IMG/VR virus record: IMGVR_UViG_3300032001_000013 | Span: 1 to 45,046 of that record | Direction: 5' to 3' (one strand) | Source of the DNA: a virus | Lineage: Duplodnaviria > Caudoviricetes | Length of the DNA: 45,046 nt | Notes under the pieces: generated by a model | Seen by the model: only the letters and a program-made list of their open reading frames with translations | What the model was told of the DNA's origin: nothing | The model's database searches: none | Made by a program: the position numbers and the translations under genes | Shown: one piece after another, positions 70 to 42,401 of the stretch | Layout: every line of letters begins with the position of its first letter | How positions within the stretch are numbered: the first letter of the stretch is position 1

Positions 70-111
70 GACAAGCGAGGGAGGCGGCCCCCGACGTTGA
101 TCGCCTCCCCC

Positions 112-550
112 GCCTGCCGAGCCGGGCATTGCCCACCCGTGCCGATCCGTGCCCTTGCCTGCGCTGCCGCGCGATGCCCCGCCGAGCTGCGCCTTGACGT
201 GCTGAGCGATTCCTGCCCCGACTTGCCGAGCCGTGCGGTGCGATCCGTGCCGACCGAACGGCGCCCAGCCGAGCCTTGGGCTGCCTCTGCCTGCCTCACA
301 ATGGCATGCCTCGCCCCGCCTTGGAACGCCTCGCCATGCTTTTCCGGCCGAGCCGGGCCGGGCTGCGCTAGGCCCTCGAAGCCACGCCTAGCCTTTCCTG
401 CCTCGCCCAGTGCCGCATCGCCGTCCACGCCGTGCAGCGGGGTGCCACGACGGCCGCACCTTGCCTTGCCCTGCATTCCGCGCAGAGCCGAGCTGTCCGG
501 ACGGTGCCGGGCCAAGCCACGCGATCCGATCCCGTGCCGGGCCCTGACGT
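112..550 (-). repeat. GGY-NN pentamer array 1 (about 7 units; putative non-contiguous guide RNA)
   Basis: 5-nt periodic GCC-NN on + strand (GGC-NN on -), units separated by GGCAGG/GGCCGTC-type spacers; promoter-like TATCTT-CC-TTGATA at 563-550 on -; hairpin at about 79-110 downstream. Confidence 0.9.
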
Positions 551-1689: not shown

Positions 1690-2241
1690 TCAGCGGCGAG
1701 CTGCTTCCTGGACGCCGCCTGCTTCCTCCAGCAGCTTGATGATGGCGCTGAGCTGGTCGCGAGAAGGCTTCAGGTAGATGATGCCCTGGGCGAGCCGCAC
1801 TGGATCTTCGCCGGCGGCCCCGATCATGGTGTTGCAGTCCCGGTCGGCGTACCCGCGGATCCTCTTGGTTACGTGGTCGTGCTCGACGCACAGGGCCAGT
1901 CCGTTGGGGCCGTTGCCGCTGGGAATTTCGCCGCAGATGTCGCAGCGTCCCGAGCGCCCGGCGACTTCAGCTCGGTACTCCTCGATGGTGATGCCGTAGA
2001 GGCGCTGAAGCTGATAGCTGCGCAGGCGGTCCTTGTTGGCCTCGCGCCAGGCTTTATGCGCCTTGCTGACCTCCTCCTTGTGACCTTGCCGGTGCAGGCC
2101 TGCGTCCTCGCGTGCCTTGACCGCGCAGGTCCAGCCTTTGCTCCTGGCGGCATTCCTGTTGACCTGAACCGTTTCGCCGCAGCCCGAGCAGTAGGCCGTC
2201 CGGTTCGTTTCGTCGATCCGGCTGATGTAGTGCTGGCCCAT
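1690..2241 (-). CDS. Endonuclease VII-like (His-Me finger) nuclease, likely free-standing homing endonuclease
   Basis: YGIT..EY, CDICG, VEHDH..RIRG..CN motifs; N-terminal CxxC. Confidence 0.85.
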   Translation of the reverse strand: MGQHYISRIDETNRTAYCSGCGETVQVNRNAARSKGWTCAVKAREDAGLHRQGHKEEVSKAHKAWREANKDRLRSYQLQRLYGITIEEYRAEVAGRSGRCDICGEIPSGNGPNGLALCVEHDHVTKRIRGYADRDCNTMIGAAGEDPVRLAQGIIYLKPSRDQLSAIIKLLEEAGGVQEAARR

Positions 2242-3020: not shown

Positions 3021-4040
3021 ATGACCGAGCTTGCCACCGTTGCGAACGGGCAGCTGGCGCCGGCGGCACCGCTGGGCGGCCTGCGTCCCCGCGTTGCCTC
3101 GCGCAAGAGCGACGACTACGTTGCCCAGATCGAGGCCCGCCGGGCGCGCTCGGCTCCGCTGACCCGCGAGGCCAAGGTGCGCAAGATGGCCTTGATCCTC
3201 TCCGACGAGCTGCACGGCTTCCGCCGCCTGGGCGTCGGCATGGTGGGCCCGATCCAGCTGAAGCTGAGGTACCAGGGCATCGTCCGCAACGTGCTCGTCG
3301 AGGACCCGGTGACGCCGGGCACCCCGGTCGAGTACGACGTGTGGGACGACCTGGGCCAGGCCTACATCCTGAGCGGCACCGAGGGCGAGGTCCGGGTCAC
3401 GCCCTTTGAAGGCAAGCGCATCCCGGTGCGGTTCTTCCGCATCGCCAGCCGCCCGGCGATCCGCAAGGAGGACCTGTTCTACCTCCGGATCAACGCGGTC
3501 GAGCAGGCCCAGGACGAGACCAAGCAGGCCATCCTGAAGCAGGAGGACGCCCGCCTGCTGGTTATCCTCCAGGCCGCGGTGACGGACTACGCCACCCGCC
3601 CGGACCACGTGGTCACGCCGAACCACAACATCACCGAGGCCTCGGGCTATCTCACCCCGGGCAGCCTCTACTCGGCTGTCGCGATGACGGACCTGCACGA
3701 GCTGCCGTCCGCCCGGCTCATGATCAACCCGTTCGACTTCCGCGACATGTACCGCTGGGACATCAACCAGACGGGCTGGGCCTTCAAGGACCGCGTGGTC
3801 GCCGGCGAGACGATCACCAGCTTCGGCGAGTTCCAGATCCAGCGTTCCATCATCGTGCCGCAGGCCAAGATCTTCCTGACCCCCGAGCCCAACTTCCTCG
3901 GCGTCTTCCCGGTCCTCTACTCGCTCGACGTCGAGGAGAACCACATGGTCGAGGCCTTCTGGAAGGGCTGGGTGTTCGACGAGATGGTGGCTATGTCCAT
4001 TTTGAATCCAAGGGGAATAGCCACGATCACCAAGAGCTGA
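3021..4040 (+). CDS. Major capsid protein
   Basis: GPIQLKLRYQGIVRNVL, YRWDINQTGWAFKD, YSLDVEEN...KGWVFDE closely resemble Bxz1/cluster C MCP; strong RBS. Confidence 0.93.
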   Translation: MTELATVANGQLAPAAPLGGLRPRVASRKSDDYVAQIEARRARSAPLTREAKVRKMALILSDELHGFRRLGVGMVGPIQLKLRYQGIVRNVLVEDPVTPGTPVEYDVWDDLGQAYILSGTEGEVRVTPFEGKRIPVRFFRIASRPAIRKEDLFYLRINAVEQAQDETKQAILKQEDARLLVILQAAVTDYATRPDHVVTPNHNITEASGYLTPGSLYSAVAMTDLHELPSARLMINPFDFRDMYRWDINQTGWAFKDRVVAGETITSFGEFQIQRSIIVPQAKIFLTPEPNFLGVFPVLYSLDVEENHMVEAFWKGWVFDEMVAMSILNPRGIATITKS

Positions 4041-9799: not shown

Positions 9800-9852
9800 C
9801 GCCATGTCCGGACAGATTCCCCGTGATCTCCCCGTGACTTGACATGCAGTGC

Positions 9853-9867
9853 TAGGTTTATTGATAT
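9853..9867 (+). promoter_or_regulatory. Phage promoter motif TANNNT-N2-3-TTGAYA (representative copy)
   Basis: Copies at 4483, 5028, 5919, 6674, 7889, 8422, 9853, 11252, 15090, 16881, 24481, 32752, 34492 (+) and 563, 26910, 30033, 37478 (-). Confidence 0.8.
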
Positions 9868-9890
9868 TGACCGACCAAGCGGGAGAACGG

Positions 9891-11249
9891 ATGAGAACCG
9901 AGACGGAGATCGTTGCCGCCATGAGAGCGGCGGCGCAGCCAGGACGGCTGCGCCTGAGCAGGCAGGTCACCGCGCAGCTGCGGGGCCTGACCGATGAGCT
10001 GGCGGCAGCCCGGCCGGCCTCGGCGCAGGAGTACGCGCGGTTCCTGGCCATCGGCCGCCGCGGCATGGTCCTGCCCGAGGCGGAGCTGGCCGGCCGGATC
10101 CGGCATGCCACCATCCTGGTGACCGGCGGGACCGGCTGCATCGGCACTGAGCTGATCCGCCAGCTGGCTGAGCGGCGGTCGGGCCTGGGCTGCCTGGTCA
10201 GCGTCAGCCGCGGCATCACCAGCGGCTACCCGCGTCACCCTGAAGTCAAGTACCGGCATGCCGACATCTGCGATCGCGCTGCCATGAATGAGCTGATGGC
10301 CGAGATCAGGCCCGATCTGGTCTTCCACGTGGCGGGCCAGCGCGACCCGGGCCTGGCCGAGACCGAGGTGCACCGCACCGTGACCACCAACGTGCTCGGC
10401 ACCCGCGCCGTGCTGGTCGCGGCGGTACGGGCCGGCGTCCCCCAGGTGGTGTGCTGCTCGACCGGCAAGGCACTGCGGCCGTACTCCCCTGACGTGTACA
10501 CGGCATCCAAGCGCGCGGCCGAGTGGGTCGCCTCGGGCGTGGCCGCTGCCACCCCCATGCTGGTCTCGGCCAGCCGGTTCACGCACGTGATGGACAACTC
10601 GATCATCTGCCGGAAGCTGTGGCGCTGGGCGGAGGCCGGCCGTGCCATGCGGCTGCACGACCCCGGTATCGCGTTCTACGTCCAGTCGGCCCGGGAGTCC
10701 GCCCAGCTGCTGCTGCTGGCGGTCCTGGAGGCCCGCCGGGGCGAGTTCCGGGTCAACGCCCTGACCGATCTCGGCTGGCCGGTGAGCCTGCTGGACGTCG
10801 CGCTGGGGACGCGGGCGGCGGCAGGCCCGGAGTCGCCGGTCTACTTCAGCGGCTACGACCGCGGGTACGAGGAGACCCCGTTCCCGGGCCTGTACGACCC
10901 GCTGACCGCGGGCGGGGTGAGCCCGCTGCTGAACATGTTCGAGGCCGCCGCGAAGACGGGCTGGGCCGAGGGCCAGGCCGACACGTTCCGGCTGGGCTTC
11001 GCGCCCGACCGGCAGGCCCTCAAGCGGCTGGCCGTGCTCGCCGAGGTCTGCGGCAGCACCACGAACCCGGGGCTTGCCCGGGGCTGCCTCGATGAGCTGT
11101 CCTGGGCGCTGCTGTCCGCGGCCACGCGGGCGGTCCCGCCCGCGCTGCTGGCCCGCTCGGCCAAGATGGCCCGGCAGCAGGAGCCGCTGAGCGACGTGCA
11201 CCGCCGCGTCCTGGAGGTTATCGAGTCAGCGACCGGTGTATTCGGGTAA
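9891..11249 (+). CDS. CapD-like NAD-dependent nucleotide-sugar epimerase/dehydratase (polysaccharide biosynthesis)
   Basis: ILVTGGTGCIG Rossmann motif, VFHVA, NVLGT, STGKA, YTASK. Confidence 0.85.
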   Translation: MRTETEIVAAMRAAAQPGRLRLSRQVTAQLRGLTDELAAARPASAQEYARFLAIGRRGMVLPEAELAGRIRHATILVTGGTGCIGTELIRQLAERRSGLGCLVSVSRGITSGYPRHPEVKYRHADICDRAAMNELMAEIRPDLVFHVAGQRDPGLAETEVHRTVTTNVLGTRAVLVAAVRAGVPQVVCCSTGKALRPYSPDVYTASKRAAEWVASGVAAATPMLVSASRFTHVMDNSIICRKLWRWAEAGRAMRLHDPGIAFYVQSARESAQLLLLAVLEARRGEFRVNALTDLGWPVSLLDVALGTRAAAGPESPVYFSGYDRGYEETPFPGLYDPLTAGGVSPLLNMFEAAAKTGWAEGQADTFRLGFAPDRQALKRLAVLAEVCGSTTNPGLARGCLDELSWALLSAATRAVPPALLARSAKMARQQEPLSDVHRRVLEVIESATGVFG

Positions 11250-11290
11250 GCTAGGTTCATTGATATTCATTCACCCGAGGGGGACTACTC

Positions 11291-12634
11291 ATGACTGCCG
11301 CGCCGGGGCGACCCTGGGCTGAGGGCGAGCCTGCCCACCAGTTCCAGGTACCCGCGTACCAGCCGCCCGCCCATCTCCTGGGCCCGTTCCGCGTTCCCGA
11401 CGACACCAGCACCCAGGTCATGCCCGCCTGGCGGCCCGAGGAGACCGTCACGGCGCCGCTGCCGCTGGGCCAGCCCGAGCCGGTCCCGGCGCCGCGGCGC
11501 AACCGGATCATCGCCCTGGTGCCCGTGCACAACGGGGAAGCGGACCTGGCCCCGGCCATCGAGGCGCTGCTGGCCCAGACCCGCCCGCTGGACGAGATCA
11601 TCATCATCTCCGACAACTCGACAGACGGCACCGTGGCGGTCGCGAGCCGCTACCCGGTGACGGTGATCGAGTCGGCAGGCAACAGGTACCGCAAGTCCGG
11701 CGCGCTGAACCAGGCCTGGCGCAAGTACGCCCAGGACGCCGACTACGTGGTGTGCATCGACGATGACACCCGGCTGCCGCCGTTTGCGGTGGAGCACTTC
11801 GAGGCCGAGATGACCGAGGATCCCGGGGTAGGTGGCATCTCCTGCCAGGTGGTGATGCGGGGCAGCAGCATCCTGAGCCGGATCCAGCGGGCCGAGTTCG
11901 CGCAGAGCACGGTGCTGAGCCGGAACCGGGGCTGGGTCCGGGTCATCTCGGGCACCGGCTGCATCTTCCGCAACGAGGCGCTGCGCGAGGCCGCCCTGCT
12001 CCCGGGCCAGGAGGGCCCGTGGACCTACCGCAGCGTGGTCGAGGACTACCACCTGACCTTCCAGCTGCGCAAGCTGGGCTGGCTGTGCATCATGAGCAAG
12101 GACGTGTGGTGCGACACCGGCAGCATGCCCTCGGTGAAGGCGCTGTGGCACCAGCGGGTCAAGTGGCAGTCCGGCACGATCGGCGACCTGATCAACTTCG
12201 GCTTCAACCGGATGAACTGGCGCGAGTGGATGCAGCAGTTCTACGGCCTGATCTGCGTGGCCTTCTGGATCCTGTGGATCTCGCTGAACGGGACCGCCTG
12301 GGCCCTGGGCGGGCTGCACCCGAACATCTGGTGGGTCATCTTCCCGGCGATCTTCGCGGGGACCGAGTGCTTCTACGCCTGGCACATCCACGGCCGCGAC
12401 TGGAAGGACATGCTGCTGGCCGTCTCCATGGTCAAGATGATGATCTACACCTTCCTGTGCATGGGCTGGAACCTGGCCAGCTGGTGGATCATCCTGCGCG
12501 GCAAGCAGAAGGACCTGTGGGCTGCCCAGTACGTCGCCGACGGGACAGACAAGGTACTAGGGGAGGGAATGAGCGATGCCGGACCTGCCAGCGAAGAGGA
12601 CCGTCGTCCCGCGCCGCAGGCGCTATGCCGTTAG
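11291..12634 (+). CDS. Processive GT2 glycosyltransferase (cellulose/PNAG synthase-like)
   Basis: PVHN, DNSTD, KSGALN, DDD, VED, QRVKW (QxxRW-like) and C-terminal TM helices. Confidence 0.9.
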   Translation: MTAAPGRPWAEGEPAHQFQVPAYQPPAHLLGPFRVPDDTSTQVMPAWRPEETVTAPLPLGQPEPVPAPRRNRIIALVPVHNGEADLAPAIEALLAQTRPLDEIIIISDNSTDGTVAVASRYPVTVIESAGNRYRKSGALNQAWRKYAQDADYVVCIDDDTRLPPFAVEHFEAEMTEDPGVGGISCQVVMRGSSILSRIQRAEFAQSTVLSRNRGWVRVISGTGCIFRNEALREAALLPGQEGPWTYRSVVEDYHLTFQLRKLGWLCIMSKDVWCDTGSMPSVKALWHQRVKWQSGTIGDLINFGFNRMNWREWMQQFYGLICVAFWILWISLNGTAWALGGLHPNIWWVIFPAIFAGTECFYAWHIHGRDWKDMLLAVSMVKMMIYTFLCMGWNLASWWIILRGKQKDLWAAQYVADGTDKVLGEGMSDAGPASEEDRRPAPQALCR

Positions 12635-13697
12635 CGCGGCCCTGGGGACCGTGGCAGCGGCCGTGCTGGGCCTGGCGCTCTGGTCGATGGCCGGCGTGAC
12701 CGCGGCCTACCGCGGGGTGACCCCGGCCGCCGCGGCAGCGGCAGCGCCCGCGCCCCGGCCGCTGGTGATCTACCACGCGCCGTTCGTCAGGTACGAGAGG
12801 GCCAGGGCCGTGCCGGTGCTGGTCTACCACGAGATGAACAACGGCTGCGCGCCCTCGGCGCCGGTCTGCAAGGCGGCCGACCCGGAGACGGTGAGCACCG
12901 CCCAGTTCCGGGCCGAGATGGCCTACATGTTCAGCCGCGGCTACCACACCGTCACCATGGCGCAGTACCAGGCCTGGCTGGGCAACCGCAAGACGAGGCT
13001 GCCGTCCAGGCCGTTCCTGATCACGGCGGACAACGGCATCTGGAGCTTCCTGTCCGGGGCCCAGCCGGTCCTGGCGGGCTACGGCTACACCGCCGTGGCC
13101 GCGGTCGTGACCGGGTTCGCCGACGGGGCTGGCGGGCACTGCGCGCCGCGGATCGGCGGGGTCAGCGTCCAGCCGGGCTGCCCGCGGGACAACGCCGGCT
13201 GGGATGCCACCTGGGCCCAGCTCCGGTCGCTCGACCCGAGGGTGTGGGAGTTCATCCTGGAGGCCGGGCCGTCCGGCCACTACGTCCAGGATTACGACCC
13301 GCACTGCCGGATGTTCGACGCCTGCCTGCTGCCCGGCGAGACCGTGGCGCAGTACCAGGTCCGCCTGGCGGCCGAGCTGGGCGGCGGCGAGACGGCGCTG
13401 GCTGCCCGCCTGGGCAGCCGCGTGAACCCCGGCGGCTGGGTGGTCCCCTACAGCGACCTGGGCTACCCGCGCTGCGCGCAGGGCGACTGCACGCCGCAGG
13501 ACGCCACGATCCCGCAGGGCTACCTGGTGAATTACGCCGATGCTCACTTCCGGGCCGTCTTCGTCGAGGATGCTTCCCGCAATGCCATCGGCCACGAGCG
13601 GTTCCGGTTCGACGTCAACGGCCCGGACACCGAGGCCTCATTCCAGAGCCAGCTGGCGGCTTTCACCGCCGCGGGCGCATTCGACAGGAGCAGGTAA
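12576..13697 (+). CDS. Polysaccharide deacetylase-like secreted/anchored protein
   Basis: VPVLVYHE, GYHTVT, FLITADNG (TFDDG-like); N-terminal TM. Confidence 0.75.
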   Translation: MPDLPAKRTVVPRRRRYAVSAALGTVAAAVLGLALWSMAGVTAAYRGVTPAAAAAAAPAPRPLVIYHAPFVRYERARAVPVLVYHEMNNGCAPSAPVCKAADPETVSTAQFRAEMAYMFSRGYHTVTMAQYQAWLGNRKTRLPSRPFLITADNGIWSFLSGAQPVLAGYGYTAVAAVVTGFADGAGGHCAPRIGGVSVQPGCPRDNAGWDATWAQLRSLDPRVWEFILEAGPSGHYVQDYDPHCRMFDACLLPGETVAQYQVRLAAELGGGETALAARLGSRVNPGGWVVPYSDLGYPRCAQGDCTPQDATIPQGYLVNYADAHFRAVFVEDASRNAIGHERFRFDVNGPDTEASFQSQLAAFTAAGAFDRSR

Positions 13698-19147: not shown

Positions 19148-19273
19148 GCCAAGGTGAGGCTAGGCATCGCGTGTCCTGGCACGGATGGGCATGGCGGGGC
19201 CCGGCAGGAGTGGCTCGGCTTGGGGTGGCTCGTCTAGGAGTTGCCCGGCGTGGCTGGGCAGGTACGGCAAGGA
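19148..19273 (+). repeat. GGY-NN pentamer array 2 (2 units)
   Basis: Strict 5-nt register with GGCAGG separators; units match the flanking genes when decoded. Confidence 0.9.
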
Positions 19274-19297
19274 AGTCACGCCAGAGCGGAGTCTGCC

Positions 19298-32766: not shown

Positions 32767-33770
32767 GGCCTGGCCGGGCCAGGCGAAGCCTTGACAGCGC
32801 GTCAAGGCATCGCGTGGCAGGAAAGGCTAGGCGTGGTGCCGATCGCCCGGCGTCGCTCTGCTAGGCAGTCGAGGCGCAGCCCGGCGCGGATGGCCGGGCC
32901 GGGTAGCGCCAGGCAGAGCAGGGCAGGGCAGGATGGGCCCCGCTCGGATGGCTGGGCATGGCAGCGCAGGAAAGGAATGTCTTGGCCTGGCCAGGCGAGG
33001 CCCGGCGGGGCAGTCATGGCTCGTCTAGGCATTGCGGGCCAGGGCGAGGCGAGGCAGGCGATTGCTCGGCGGGCCGTGGCGCCGCAGGGCAGGTCTAGGC
33101 AGGCTAATGGTTCAGTGAACCATTAAGGCAGCCAAGGCATGCCGGGGCGAGGCTCCGCGGGGCATCGCCGGGTATCGCAAGGCCGTCATCGCGGGGCACC
33201 GCCCGTCCTGGATGGGCATGGCGCCGCGCGGCGCTGCCAGGCAGGATTGGCGAGGCTTGGCCCAGGCATTGCCGGTCGTGGCACCGCCCGGCAAGGCAGG
33301 AGAGTCTGGGCTAGGCGGGGCATCGCTCAGCGCGGCGAGGCACAGTGCCGCGAGGCCGGGCGGGGCTAGGCAGTCCAGGCATCGCTCGTCGCGGCCAGGC
33401 ATGGCCCGGCGAGGCGCAGCGAGGCAGTCCCGGTATCGCTCGGATGGCTTGGCCAGGCAAGGCCAGGCAGGGCCGTCGAGGCGTGGCCTTGCGCCGCCTG
33501 GACCGCAACGCATCGCAAGGCTGGGCAAGGCAGGTGCAGCCTGGCAAGGCAGTGCCTGGCGGCGCAACGCGCAGCCTGGCCAGGCGAGGCAGTCAGGTCG
33601 TGGCGAGCCTTGGCCCGGCAGTGCCCGGCCCGGCAGCGCCCGGCACGGCATGGCAGGAGATGCTAGTCAGGGCCAGGCTCGGCTCGGATCGCGCGGCTCG
33701 GCGCGGCAGGAGCAGCTTGGCATGGCGGGGAGAGGCTGAGCCCGGCTAGCGGGGCAAGGCGCGGCAGGTA
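32767..33770 (+). repeat. GGY-NN pentamer array 3 (about 18 units)
   Basis: Starts right after promoter TAAGGT-TCA-TTGATA (32752); internal palindrome at 33105-33125. Confidence 0.92.
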
Positions 33771-34505: not shown

Positions 34506-35324
34506 AGCATGGTGGTCCTGGGCTGGGCGTCGGTGGCACATCACGTCCAGGCCGGGCGTGGCCGTCCAGGCGCGGATAGCCAGGACGGCGCGTCCAGGCG
34601 CTGCCGCGCTCGGCAGTCCTGGTGTCGCGAGGCGGGGCAGTGCGTCGCTGGTCGCGGCAAGGCAAGGCCCGGCTCGGCCGTCGCGGTTAGTCTGCGCGTG
34701 TCGGTGCTGGGCCCGGAGCGCTAGGCTTCGCTGGGCCGTCGGCGCATCGCTATGCGTGGCCCGGCTTGGCGTGGCAAGGCCTCGCATCGCAAGGCAAGGC
34801 CGTCGAGGCTTAGCTGGTCTGGGCACGGGATGCCAGGCACGGCGGGGCGCGGCCGTCCAGGCTGGTCTAGGACATCCCGTCGAGGACTGGCGTGGCCGTC
34901 AAGGCCTGGCGGGTCCGGGCCCGGTACCGCATGGCACAACTCGGCGCGGCCGGAGATGCTGGGCTAGGCGAGGCATCGCGGGGCGCGGCGAGGCTAGGCC
35001 GTCTGCGCGGGGCTCGGCAAGGGTCGCTCCGCTCGGCAGGGCACGGCGAGGCCGGGTTGGCAAGGGTCGCCCGGGTGGCGTTGCATCGCTTGGCCGTCCT
35101 GGTATAGCCCGGCGTCGCATTGCGAAGCGGCGCGGGGCATGGCCTGGCTGTCGAGGCTGAGCTTGGCGCTGCGTCGCTTGGCGCTGCGAGGCTGGGCGCG
35201 GCCGTCCTGGCCCGGCCCGGAGGCGCAACGCGGGTCCAGGCGAGGCAGGGCTAGGCCGTCTAGGCACGTCCCGGCGGGTCGGGGCTGAGCTAGTCGCCGC
35301 CTGGCAAGGTGTGGTGAGGCAGGA
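34506..35324 (+). repeat. GGY-NN pentamer array 4 (about 15 units)
   Basis: Follows promoter TAAGGT-TCT-TTGATA (34492); GGCCGTC separators. Confidence 0.92.
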
Positions 35325-35377
35325 GGTTCTCCGGCCCGGGAAGACGTGAGGATGTCTTCCCGGGAGGAGAGCCCACG

Positions 35378-36931
35378 GTGACGGTTCCGACTTTTTCGTC
35401 TTATCAGCCTCCTGGCGTCTACGTCTCCGACGTCACCGGGCCCATCGTCACCACGACCGGGGTCTTCCCGCAGATCCTGACGCTGGTCGGGCCGGGGCTC
35501 GGCTACCGCACCGCGGTCCAGACCTTCCAGATCTTCGCGGGCACGGGCGCCATCCTGAACTTCACCGGGGTCTTCACCACCGCCCAGGCCGGGCCCCCGG
35601 CGATCGCCGCGCCCGTGATGACGGTCACCGGCTCCAGCACCATCCTGGCCCAGGGCACCGACTACAGCTTCACCGTGACCCCGGACCCCTCGGGCAACGC
35701 CGCGCTGGCGGTCACCTCGGTCTTCCGGGTCGGCACCTCGACCAGCATCGCCGACGGCGCCCAGGTGACGATCACCTACAACTACGCCGACGTCACGTAC
35801 TACCAGCCGCAGCTGTTCACCAACTTCCCCGCGGTCACCAACGCCTACGGCCAGCCCCTGGTGGCCGCCGCGCCGACCCAGGCCAACGTCAGCCAGGTGG
35901 CCAACCCGCTGAGCTACGCCGCGCAGACCGCATTCGGCGCCGGGGCCAACCAGGTCATCGCGTGCGCCTGCAACCCGGCGGACGGCACCCTGGAGCAGCA
36001 GCTGCTCGCCGCGTACACCAAGCTGGCTGCCGTCTACGACTCGACCCTGGTGGTCCCGGTCTTCCCCGACTACCTGGGCGGCTTCGCGGGCGGCTCCGGC
36101 GTGTCCCAGTACGCCCTGACGCTGGCCACCGACCTGGACGGCGCGATGCAGGGCGCCAGCGTCAACGGCTACCCTCGGATCGGCTTCTTCGGGCTGCCGG
36201 TGGACTACTCCGAGTCGGCGCTGCCGGTGCCGAGCTTCTCCGCCTCGATCGCCGACAAGCGGCTGGTGCTGGCCTACCCCAAGGCCCTCCAGGCCTACAA
36301 CCCGCTGACCCGGCAGACGTTCAGCGCCTCGGGCTGCTACCTGGCGGTCGCGCTGGCCGCGGTGCTGTCGGCGCTGCCGGTGAACACCGGGCTGACCGGC
36401 CAGGCGGTGCCCGGCTTCGCGGGGCTGACCGCGGCCGAGCTTCAGGCGATGACCCCGGCGTTCATGAACAGCCTGGCCCAGGCCGGGACCACGGTGGTCT
36501 ACCAGAGCCGCAACGGCGGGCTGACCTGCCGGCATGGCCTGACCACCAACATGAGCGCGCTGAACACCCGGGAGATCTCACTGGTCCGCCAGGCCGATGC
36601 CCTGCTGGTGTCCCTCCAGGCCGGGATGGAGAACTCCGGGCTGATCGGCACGCCGATCACCGCGAACACGGTGGCCACGGTGCAGGGCGCGATCGTCTCG
36701 ATCCTCCAGCAGGACATCGCCCAGGGCATCATCGCCAGCTACACGAACCTGGTGGTCGCCCAGCAGCAGTACCCGGGCGGCGACCCGACGGTGATCACCG
36801 CGACCTTCTCCTATGTCCCGAGCGTCCCGCTGAACTACATCGAGGTCACGTTCAGCATCGACCTCAGTGCTGGCCTGGTGTCCCAGCAGTCACAGCAGAA
36901 CGCGGCAGCTCCCACCGTCTCCGTGACCTGA
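35378..36931 (+). CDS. Contractile tail sheath protein
   Basis: Y..PGVYV N-terminus; RHGLTT, REISLVR..D, P..PLNYI.V.F C-terminus. Confidence 0.92.
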   Translation: MTVPTFSSYQPPGVYVSDVTGPIVTTTGVFPQILTLVGPGLGYRTAVQTFQIFAGTGAILNFTGVFTTAQAGPPAIAAPVMTVTGSSTILAQGTDYSFTVTPDPSGNAALAVTSVFRVGTSTSIADGAQVTITYNYADVTYYQPQLFTNFPAVTNAYGQPLVAAAPTQANVSQVANPLSYAAQTAFGAGANQVIACACNPADGTLEQQLLAAYTKLAAVYDSTLVVPVFPDYLGGFAGGSGVSQYALTLATDLDGAMQGASVNGYPRIGFFGLPVDYSESALPVPSFSASIADKRLVLAYPKALQAYNPLTRQTFSASGCYLAVALAAVLSALPVNTGLTGQAVPGFAGLTAAELQAMTPAFMNSLAQAGTTVVYQSRNGGLTCRHGLTTNMSALNTREISLVRQADALLVSLQAGMENSGLIGTPITANTVATVQGAIVSILQQDIAQGIIASYTNLVVAQQQYPGGDPTVITATFSYVPSVPLNYIEVTFSIDLSAGLVSQQSQQNAAAPTVSVT

Positions 36932-36933
36932 TT

Positions 36934-37458
36934 GCCTGCCCTACCCTGCACAGCTAAGCGCTCCAAGCCAAGACGAGCGCAGACGGCCATGCCCTGCCAA
37001 GCGTTCCGTGCCCGGCCTCGCCTTGACGGCCATGCCCAGCTCCGCGAGCCCGCGCCTAGCCAGGCCTCTCCGGCCGAGCGCTCCACGCCAAGCCCTGCCA
37101 AGCACGGCCTAGTCGTGCCATGCCGCTCCGGCCTCGCCACGCTCAGCGACGCCAGTCCTCGCCGAGCCAAGCGACTCCTGCCGAGCCGAGCGCGGACATC
37201 CCGGGCCGCGCCAATCCCGGCCAGGCCGCGACTGCCCGGCCCTGCCTAGCCAGGACTAGCCGCCCTGGCCCCGCGGTGCGTTTCCGGCCCCGCCAAGCCC
37301 CGCCGTGCCTAGCCACGCGACGCCCAGCAATGCGCTGACGGCCGTGCCGGGCACAGCGGCCCATGCCGGTCCAAGCGCAGCAACACCTGGACGGCCTCGC
37401 CTCAGCGTGCCCTGGCAAGCCATCTAAGCCAGGCCCGGATGTGCGGCGCCAAGACTGC
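36934..37458 (-). repeat. GGY-NN pentamer array 5 (about 10 units)
   Basis: GCC-NN register on +; promoter TAGAAT-CA-TTGACA at 37478-37465 on -. Confidence 0.92.
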
Positions 37459-41258: not shown

Positions 41259-41261
41259 TCT

Positions 41262-41665
41262 GCCTGCCTTGCCCTGCCACGCCTATCTATGCTGCTCCGA
41301 GCCCTTGCCTGCCTTGCCCCGCCTTGCCGTGCCAGGCTTCGCCGTCCGAGCCGCTCCTGCCTAGCCTCGCCATACTGCGCCTGTCCTCGCTATGCTGCGA
41401 CTCGCCGCGCCTCGCCAGGACTGCCCTGCCGCACCGTGCCTCGCCCAGCTGTGATCGCCCTGCCCAGCAGCGCCTTGACTGCCTTGCCCGGCATTGCCCA
41501 GCGGCCCTTGCCGGGACAGGCCCGGACATGCCAGGACTGCCTCGCCTCGCCCCGCCCTGCCCAGCCAAGACTGGCCATGCCGTCCCTTGACGGCCGCGCC
41601 CTGCTGAGCCTTGCGGAGCCGGGCCCCGCCTACCCGGGCCCTGCCGTGCCTTCGTCTCCTGCCTG
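41262..41665 (-). repeat. GGY-NN pentamer array 6 (about 7 units)
   Basis: GCC-NN register on + with GACTGCC separators; downstream of - gene 41808..42347. Confidence 0.88.
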
Positions 41666-41807: not shown

Positions 41808-42347
41808 TTACGCCCCGTGGCTGAACTGCACTCCCGGGACCTCGTTCTGCCCGTCGGGGCCGTGCACGATGACTTCGAGGTCCTGATCGGTCACCACCGG
41901 GTCGCCGAACTTGTCGACTTCCTCCCGGCCGACATCGTGGCTGCCGCAGCTGTGGCAGGTGGACCGCCAGTGCCGGCCGCGCAGTGCCCGGCCGTGCGTG
42001 ACCGGGTGCAGGTCGTTCTGGAGCCGCCAGATCGTGTCGATGTTGAACGTCTCCAGCTGCTCGGCGGCCTCCAGGGCCAGCTCGGGCCGCTGGTAGGCGG
42101 CGTAGAGCCGCCGGTACCGGTACAGGGTGCCGATGCTCAGGTCCATCGCGTCGGCCAGCTGGATCAGGGTGTAGGCATCGGTGAAGCTGTCGACGCACTG
42201 CCCGAACCGCCAGGCGGCGCGTACCGAGTCCTGGCCCGCCTTGACGAGTCCCGCGTAGGACAGCTCCAGCGTGTTGAGGGTGCCCGCGTCTACGCGGCGT
42301 CCTGGCGTGGTGGTCCTCCGGCTGCCCGGTGTGTCGGCGTTATTCAT
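41808..42347 (-). CDS. HTH plus Zn-ribbon protein upstream of array 6
   Basis: LADAMDLSIGTLYRY HTH-like; CHSCGS; RBS GAAGGA; promoter-like TATTTT-CC-TTAGTA at about 42387. Confidence 0.75.
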   Translation of the reverse strand: MNNADTPGSRRTTTPGRRVDAGTLNTLELSYAGLVKAGQDSVRAAWRFGQCVDSFTDAYTLIQLADAMDLSIGTLYRYRRLYAAYQRPELALEAAEQLETFNIDTIWRLQNDLHPVTHGRALRGRHWRSTCHSCGSHDVGREEVDKFGDPVVTDQDLEVIVHGPDGQNEVPGVQFSHGA

Positions 42348-42401
42348 GTTTCGTCCTTCGTAGTATCGCTCGTTACTAAGGAAAATAGCACATGCCCTGA
42401 G

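Follow-up and report, generated by a model that had tools for sequence, protein, structure and literature searches.

In VIPR, GGY/NN guides pair with DNA but leave out each third base, usually that at the wobble position, and transcription is repressed from either strand (bioRxiv 10.64898/2026.04.26.720920). For SUSP1 Vipr, the accessible part of the corresponding report describes a bound filament with one subunit per repeat that blocks transcription (10.64898/2026.04.26.720927). VIPR itself, staggered arrays, and wobble-aligned targeting of active sites have already been published (bioRxiv 10.64898/2026.04.26.720920; 10.64898/2026.10.15.759431), and the targets named in the accessible parts of this literature are satellites, prophages, vipr loci, vrRNAs, and REP decoys, with viruses as the targets of host-borne types (10.64898/2026.04.26.720920; 10.64898/2026.10.15.759431; 10.64898/2026.10.21.760802). 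Thus far, VIPR has been described as a weapon between viruses. Also relevant here is DarHTG, which the available portion of its description presents as a tested anti-phage system whose helicase is needed for defense (PMC13069673).

The viral DNA analyzed here (the window, meaning the whole 45,046-bp stretch) is a linear record that is ~28% complete and has a GC content of ~70%. It contains six GGC/NN arrays with ~55–60 segments (61 by the parser, partial ends included):

101–548, minus strand: array 1, GGC/NN pentamers in ~7 segments parted by 4-nt GGC(A/C) phase shifts
70–118, minus strand: stable hairpin at the 3′ end of array 1 (z −4.7 for 45–125)
218–277, minus strand: 13-unit guide segment of array 1, a predicted vrRNA whose reading falls on the Walker B (DEAQD) of accessory helicases
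19153–19275, plus strand: array 2, 2–3 segments
32767–33767, plus strand: array 3, 19 segments with a palindrome in the middle
34535–35326, plus strand: array 4, 15 segments followed by a 3′ hairpin
36932–37455, minus strand: array 5, 11 segments
41260–41650, minus strand: array 6, 7 segments
41808–42350, minus strand: small ORF directly upstream of array 6, opposite to the virion-gene direction

Parser scores for the six arrays ranged from 49 to 329, as compared to at most 15.7 in five triplet-shuffled windows, and the arrays are therefore not attributable to chance. Together they comprise 581 units of five bases, 34 units whose scaffold is 2 nt long, and 55 GGC(A/C) phase shifts of four bases; the phase shifts would correspond to guide boundaries in a staggered architecture. 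GGC accounts for 300 of the 596 3-nt scaffolds, and the remainder are degenerate. A 21–22-bp palindrome that ends array 1 (49–70, or 51–69 as the stretch following the hairpin) recurs at ~33105–33127, where it splits array 3, and a GGTTC(A/T)TTGATA motif lies ahead of arrays 3 and 4 as well as two genes; either element is a possible operator or promoter. The small ORF upstream of array 6 was without a Pfam match and is possibly an accessory gene.

With respect to the identity of the phage, the window encodes a major capsid protein, a tail sheath, and further virion genes:

3021–4040, plus strand: major capsid protein (phrog_2522, E 8e-98)
35378–36931: tail sheath
9849–13697, plus strand: sugar epimerase/dehydratase and glycosyltransferase genes within the virion region
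1690–2241, minus strand: Endonuclease VII-family gene

The capsid protein is 57–60% identical to those of Gordonia and Mycobacterium myoviruses, 78% identical to that of a 154-kb Streptomyces plasmid record, and 99% identical to that of an 85-kb relative (G001). By its capsid sequence the contig thus belongs with the large actinophage myoviruses, and the identities to the Gordonia and Mycobacterium myoviruses and the Streptomyces record make an actinomycete host likely. The Endonuclease VII-family gene is shared with L004 and absent from L005 and L040, a distribution that marks it as a mobile insertion ahead of the capsid module. All 24 runs listed for the first 4.1 kb of the window are soil metagenomes. 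Array 1 lies inside single contigs in three of four soil runs checked (one of which is possibly the source of the window) and is also present in the IMG/VR loci L004, L005, and L040, and hence it is not an assembly artifact. Strain differences in array 1 were seen at three positions, all within scaffolds, a number too small for a test.

The segment at 218–277 was read by the published VIPR one-base-skip rule, and matches were scored at that skip. Its repeat consists of GGC/NN pentamers on the minus strand, and on the plus strand positions 215–277 read gcc-CC gac-TT gcc-GA gcc-GT gcg-GT gcg-AT cc-GT gcc-GA cc-GA acg-GC gcc-CA gcc-GA gcc-TT. A predicted boundary lies at 214–217 (GGCA|GGA); the 5′ boundary, near 278–297, is irregular, and the parser joined the segment to its neighbor. 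Taking two bases per codon, the degenerate reading is P-[FL]-[DE]-V-V-[IM]-V-[DE]-[DE]-A-[QH]-[DE]-[FL]. The original prediction had proposed these 13 dinucleotides as a helicase motif II/Walker B, and the same parse was recovered exactly. It had also assumed two 2-nt scaffolds, which fall at 245–246 and 254–255 and belong to a class that makes up 34 of the 615 NN-bearing 4- and 5-nt units in the window. Full 5-nt units occupy both of these positions in the relatives L006, L011, and L014 and one of them in L007, and the orthologous segments of all four carry the same IVDEAQ core, which argues that the short scaffolds keep the frame, as had been assumed. The segments of these relatives and of the unrelated L141 read [WC]DL[YIR]IVDEAQ[DG]F or KIAIVDEA[QH]xS.

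Could this reading be an accident of freely parsing a degenerate repeat? The parse does need two short scaffolds, and this segment, like that at 456–548, was picked because its motif was recognizable. Against this, the same core is read in relatives whose scaffolds are full length, reversed controls gave no matches, and the motifs exceed shuffled expectation. Specifically, Walker B readings ([VILF]DEA[QH]) number 7 among 822 distinct segments from 80 records (shuffle mean 0.06, maximum 1), with five of the six records concerned being close kin, and Walker A readings number 8 in the same set (shuffle mean 0.17, maximum 2). An accidental parse is accordingly extremely improbable and already largely refuted. 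No self-target was found for the segment at ≥80%, the best being 17/26 in both the window and G001.

The exact pattern had no match in genomes (one genome per species) and three in metagenomes, all three in frame on a UvrD-like motif II; these sole exact matches are phage-like contigs with a GC content of 38–43%. When the first unit was dropped, the relaxed scan returned 28 genome loci, 28/28 in frame on Walker B. A relaxed search of viral contigs gave 50 matches, 50/50 in frame (control 0). The gapped search suggested in the original prediction, which would have failed had no in-frame helicase risen above background, thus placed every match examined on helicase motif II. One helicase family of ~480 residues, nearly all actinobacterial, accounts for 21 of the 28 genome loci. 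Of 12 loci tested for DarT, 11 have it next to the helicase gene, and all five tested for an ADP-ribosylglycohydrolase have one nearby, with the complete set of three genes present in L107, L102, and L108; an Actinomadura locus of this type also adjoins Wadjet JetC. The family therefore has the layout of DarHTG, an assignment made by domain layout. At L134, DarT was seen with no glycohydrolase among the ORFs scanned, and this pair sits beside an integrase, Prim-Pol, and DUF3631, marking a mobile element. The remaining seven loci include four NERD-helicases, two Chloroflexota UvrD-like proteins, and one protein at 25/26, L112 (Fimbriimonas, 771 aa), that resembles an ordinary UvrD/Rep. Both 25/26 chromosomal matches are non-actinobacterial, and the best actinobacterial match is 24/26.

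Because the 28-locus scan was relaxed, genomes were also sampled with the full pattern at ≤3 mismatches. Streptosporangiales, the order of Actinomadura, served as a proxy for the phage's own host; the unpublished genomes G007 and G016 count only in the order-sample denominators and as two of the seven matches of the 350–398 search described below. Matches were found in 5 of 401 genomes of the order (control 0), each in a defense context: two DarH-like genes (24/26), DrmD, a NERD-UvrD beside DrmA/DrmB, and a UvrD-like gene beside a kinase-FtsK gene and DrmA. In the class sample, 7 of 301 genomes matched (control 0), yielding six new hits that are all NERD-UvrD fusions. Two of them lie near restriction-like genes; the other four have housekeeping neighbors, and these orphan fusions are only candidate defense genes. 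One hit is the SF2 protein DrmD, and the target site is thus not strictly SF1-specific.

These frequencies bear on the idea that the guide represses a housekeeping repair helicase of the UvrD/PcrA type and thereby frees phage replication. The motif is common to UvrD/Rep, L112 matches at 25/26, and another segment may read onto a sigma-like regulator found once among housekeeping genes. A core gene, however, would match most genomes rather than 5/401 and 7/301, and judged by their domains the 11 distinct hits include no core repair helicase, leaving this explanation very improbable. Of the defense-or-repair context originally envisaged, the neighborhoods of the matched genes point to the former and these counts disfavor the latter. 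Gabija GajB, offered then as an example, is not the matched gene: the actinobacterial hits are DarH-like proteins (beside DarT), NERD-UvrD fusions, one UvrD-like protein beside DrmA, and one DrmD, and no GajA was present among the neighbors scanned at L107, L134–L137, and L224–L229, other loci having been scanned in part.

The viral matches raise a different possibility, namely that the guide silences the helicase of a competing phage, satellite, or plasmid in the canonical VIPR role, and that the defense matches are by-products of a shared motif. Natural targets in the accessible parts of the published work are mobile elements, vipr loci, or REP decoys; the helicases hit by the 3 exact matches and the 50 relaxed viral ones are carried by phage-like or viral contigs; the DarH-DarT hit at L134 is on a mobile element; and an array-4 segment resembles a tail-sheath start. 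The relaxed viral matches, however, have a GC content of 31–57% (median 35%), 49 of 50 end in DEAQDL, and a version of the core in high-GC codons matched 0 viral contigs. A companion guide also argues against this role:

456–548, minus strand: array 1, first segment, whose reading falls on the SNF2 Walker A (L[LI]AD[DE]VG[LIV]GKTI) of DISARM DrmD and Dpd DpdE

This segment matched 63 of 201 genomes within 2 of 24 positions (control 0), and among 30 loci fetched the best PADLOC model was DrmD in 22, DpdE in 7, and none in 1, such that 29/30 are DrmD/DpdE; re-parsed to 16 units, it matches at 28/32. On balance we regard the canonical role as unlikely, albeit credible. Its distinction from a defense-directed guide is blurred because mobile elements carry defense cargo, as in L134.

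The remaining segments gave weaker results. Five others from the window gave 0/151, 0/151, 1/151, and 0/121 and, for the fifth, 7 matches versus 13 in the control. Across 50 window segments, comparison of 20 DISARM/Dpd islands with 20 control regions revealed no general excess (4 wins and 5 losses by ≥2 positions), whereas relatives' segments scored 13 versus 0, partly via selection on the SNF2 motif. The fifth segment is as follows:

350–398, minus strand: segment tentatively reading onto an ECF-sigma-like family (EGGASLPTYF)

Together with segments from L011 and G001, it may read onto EGGASLPTYFMGAC of an actinobacterial ECF-sigma-like family, matching 18/20 on L354 (22/24 and 22/28 for the relatives' segments), and the gene stands among housekeeping genes in one case. 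Given these weak results and a possible sigma-like target, the guide library looks mixed, with few targets assigned.

Several further readings deserve mention. The last segment of array 4 (35258–35317, plus strand) matches, at 20/24 and thus one above shuffles, the beginning of the tail-sheath gene that this phage itself carries 70 bases further on, and had no exact viral match; it is perhaps aimed at the sheath of a relative or of a contractile system, or at self-regulation. Segment 33299–33368 (plus strand) matches, in sense, a WYG.SADTA.RG motif of uncharacterized proteins (23/28 on L106; also L350), and guides thus point at both strands. An LIPVIDGGI reading occurs in sense in the window (35096–35145, plus strand) and antisense in the distant phage L176, and its target was not found. 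Across Vipr loci in viral contigs (L138–L217), an AHELG[HQ]-like reading, which we take to be an ImmA/IrrE-type peptidase motif, is present in 12 segments from 11 records (shuffle maximum 0). Many other readings there resemble restriction, DISARM, or kinase motifs. NB-ARC, ThiF, HExxH peptidase, and metallo-beta-lactamase motifs are candidate assignments for further readings. An array in L171 (7178–7680) contains a long run of one two-unit pair (YVYVYV), which suggests slippage during guide change.

In terms of the effector, a profile search detected no vipr gene in the 45,046-bp window, which represents ~28% of the genome. G001, the closest long relative, has an array at the same place as the window's, ahead of the capsid module, with guides orthologous to those of the window. 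It also carries, ~41 kb upstream of the capsid gene, a vipr homolog, after which come a small ORF and an array of 2 kb. The only hit of this gene against PDB sequences was SUSP1 Vipr (E 0.0055), its family profile matches SUSP1 Vipr with an E of 1.9e-12 (hhalign 96%), and its AlphaFold model (pLDDT 85) matches Cas7-type RAMPs (E 3e-6), identifying it by sequence and predicted structure as a Vipr homolog. The ORF that follows was without a Pfam match and is named vap by position. Vipr-like contigs also occur in the same runs as array 1, at depths of 16.6, 9.8, and 6.5–7.0 versus 23, 9.6, and 7.8 for the array, a co-occurrence rather than linkage. The vipr gene is thus predicted to lie beyond the ends of this contig, probably at another site of the same genome.

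Were the phage instead to lack vipr, its RNAs would be orphan guides acting only with, or as decoys for, the Vipr of another element. Such a scenario draws on the lack of vipr in the window, on solo vrRNAs as presented in the accessible part of their report (bioRxiv 10.64898/2026.10.15.759431), and on a search that gave no vipr hit in six more distant relatives, five of them near-complete. The vipr of G001, however, lies at a distance beyond the span of a 28%-complete contig, vipr-like contigs reach similar depth in the same runs, and G004, the single distant relative whose entire sequence was scanned for arrays, lacks arrays as well as vipr. We accordingly judge orphan guides improbable. Two other capsid relatives, L067 (17858–18523) and L054 (4803–5267), encode a Vipr far closer to that of SUSP1 (E 6e-41), from which it appears that this phage group acquired VIPR more than once.

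Taken together, the array as observed and read, its in-frame matches and the kinds of gene matched, and the order of vipr, putative vap, and array in G001 lead us to favor, with reasonable though limited confidence, a model in which 218–277 is a VIPR guide that silences host anti-phage helicase genes. Minus-strand transcription of array 1 would be followed by cleavage at the GGC(A/C) phase shifts, after which one Vipr subunit per repeat would assemble into a filament, by analogy to SUSP1. The NN pairs would bind the helicase gene's coding strand and skip each wobble base, and a filament on the Walker B codons might then block transcription, as in SUSP1. In the darH-darT-darG3 arrangement the helicase gene comes first, and for that reason the block would be polar. 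As motif II is nearly fixed at codon positions 1 and 2 and common to defense helicases, one guide could cover several systems, here DarHTG-like, NERD-UvrD, and DISARM at 23–24 of 26 positions (88–92%), and a target would have to alter its ATPase site to escape. If this model is correct, VIPR is also a form of RNA-programmed counter-defense: through a single invariant motif it reaches many immune systems, and it resists escape by synonymous changes. The guides without an explanation would then supply a list of candidate host genes that limit these phages. A broader proposal, which we hold tentatively and which could well prove wrong, is that large actinophages use VIPR as an anti-defense library directed at catalytic-motif codons shared by unrelated systems. 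Dozens of dispersed guides would then silence DarHTG, DISARM, Dpd, NERD-helicases, and restriction helicases, and if so, decoded guides would list known and unknown defense genes.

Comparison with described systems reveals both shared and distinct features. Similar to SUSP1 type II VIPR, the arrays consist of GGY/NN pentamers, and the 13 units of this guide fall within the 9–16 of that type. The one-base skip likewise lies on the wobble position, with a wobble-aligned coding-DNA match of ≥80%, and the system is phage-borne, with a vipr homolog and a putative vap in a close relative and segment 218–277 without a self-target. Unlike the satellites or prophages matched in VIPR as described, the best matches here are anti-phage genes of bacteria. 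The ~55–60 segments also form six arrays that are dispersed among virion genes away from vipr, and scaffolds are degenerate (CGC, GTC, GGA, AGC, TGC, and a 2-nt GG). Whereas SUSP1 type II guides are each followed by a conserved ~40-nt tail, the segments here have none and abut via 4-nt phase shifts, with a hairpin at array ends in place of the per-guide tail; such tail-less abutting segments fit the staggered arrays of fig. S18 (bioRxiv 10.64898/2026.04.26.720920). Solo vrRNAs, in the accessible part of their report, likewise form arrays without an adjacent vipr and direct guides to active-site codons, but their targets, in enterobacterial phages, are REP decoys, vipr, vrRNAs, or satellites and not defense helicases, and vipr in the present case is probably elsewhere in the same genome (bioRxiv 10.64898/2026.10.15.759431). 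The matched operons, by domain layout, resemble DarHTG as presented in the available portion of PMC13069673, combining a UvrD-like helicase, DarT, and an ADP-ribosylglycohydrolase.

We found no publication on VIPR guides against host defense genes, although supplementary target tables or subscription journals may hold one, and the matches to host anti-phage genes are therefore likely to be what is new relative to published VIPR. RNA-based anti-CRISPRs and protein anti-defense factors are also phage-encoded, and they block one system at the protein or RNP level. The 218–277 guide would differ from both in providing programmable silencing across unrelated systems.
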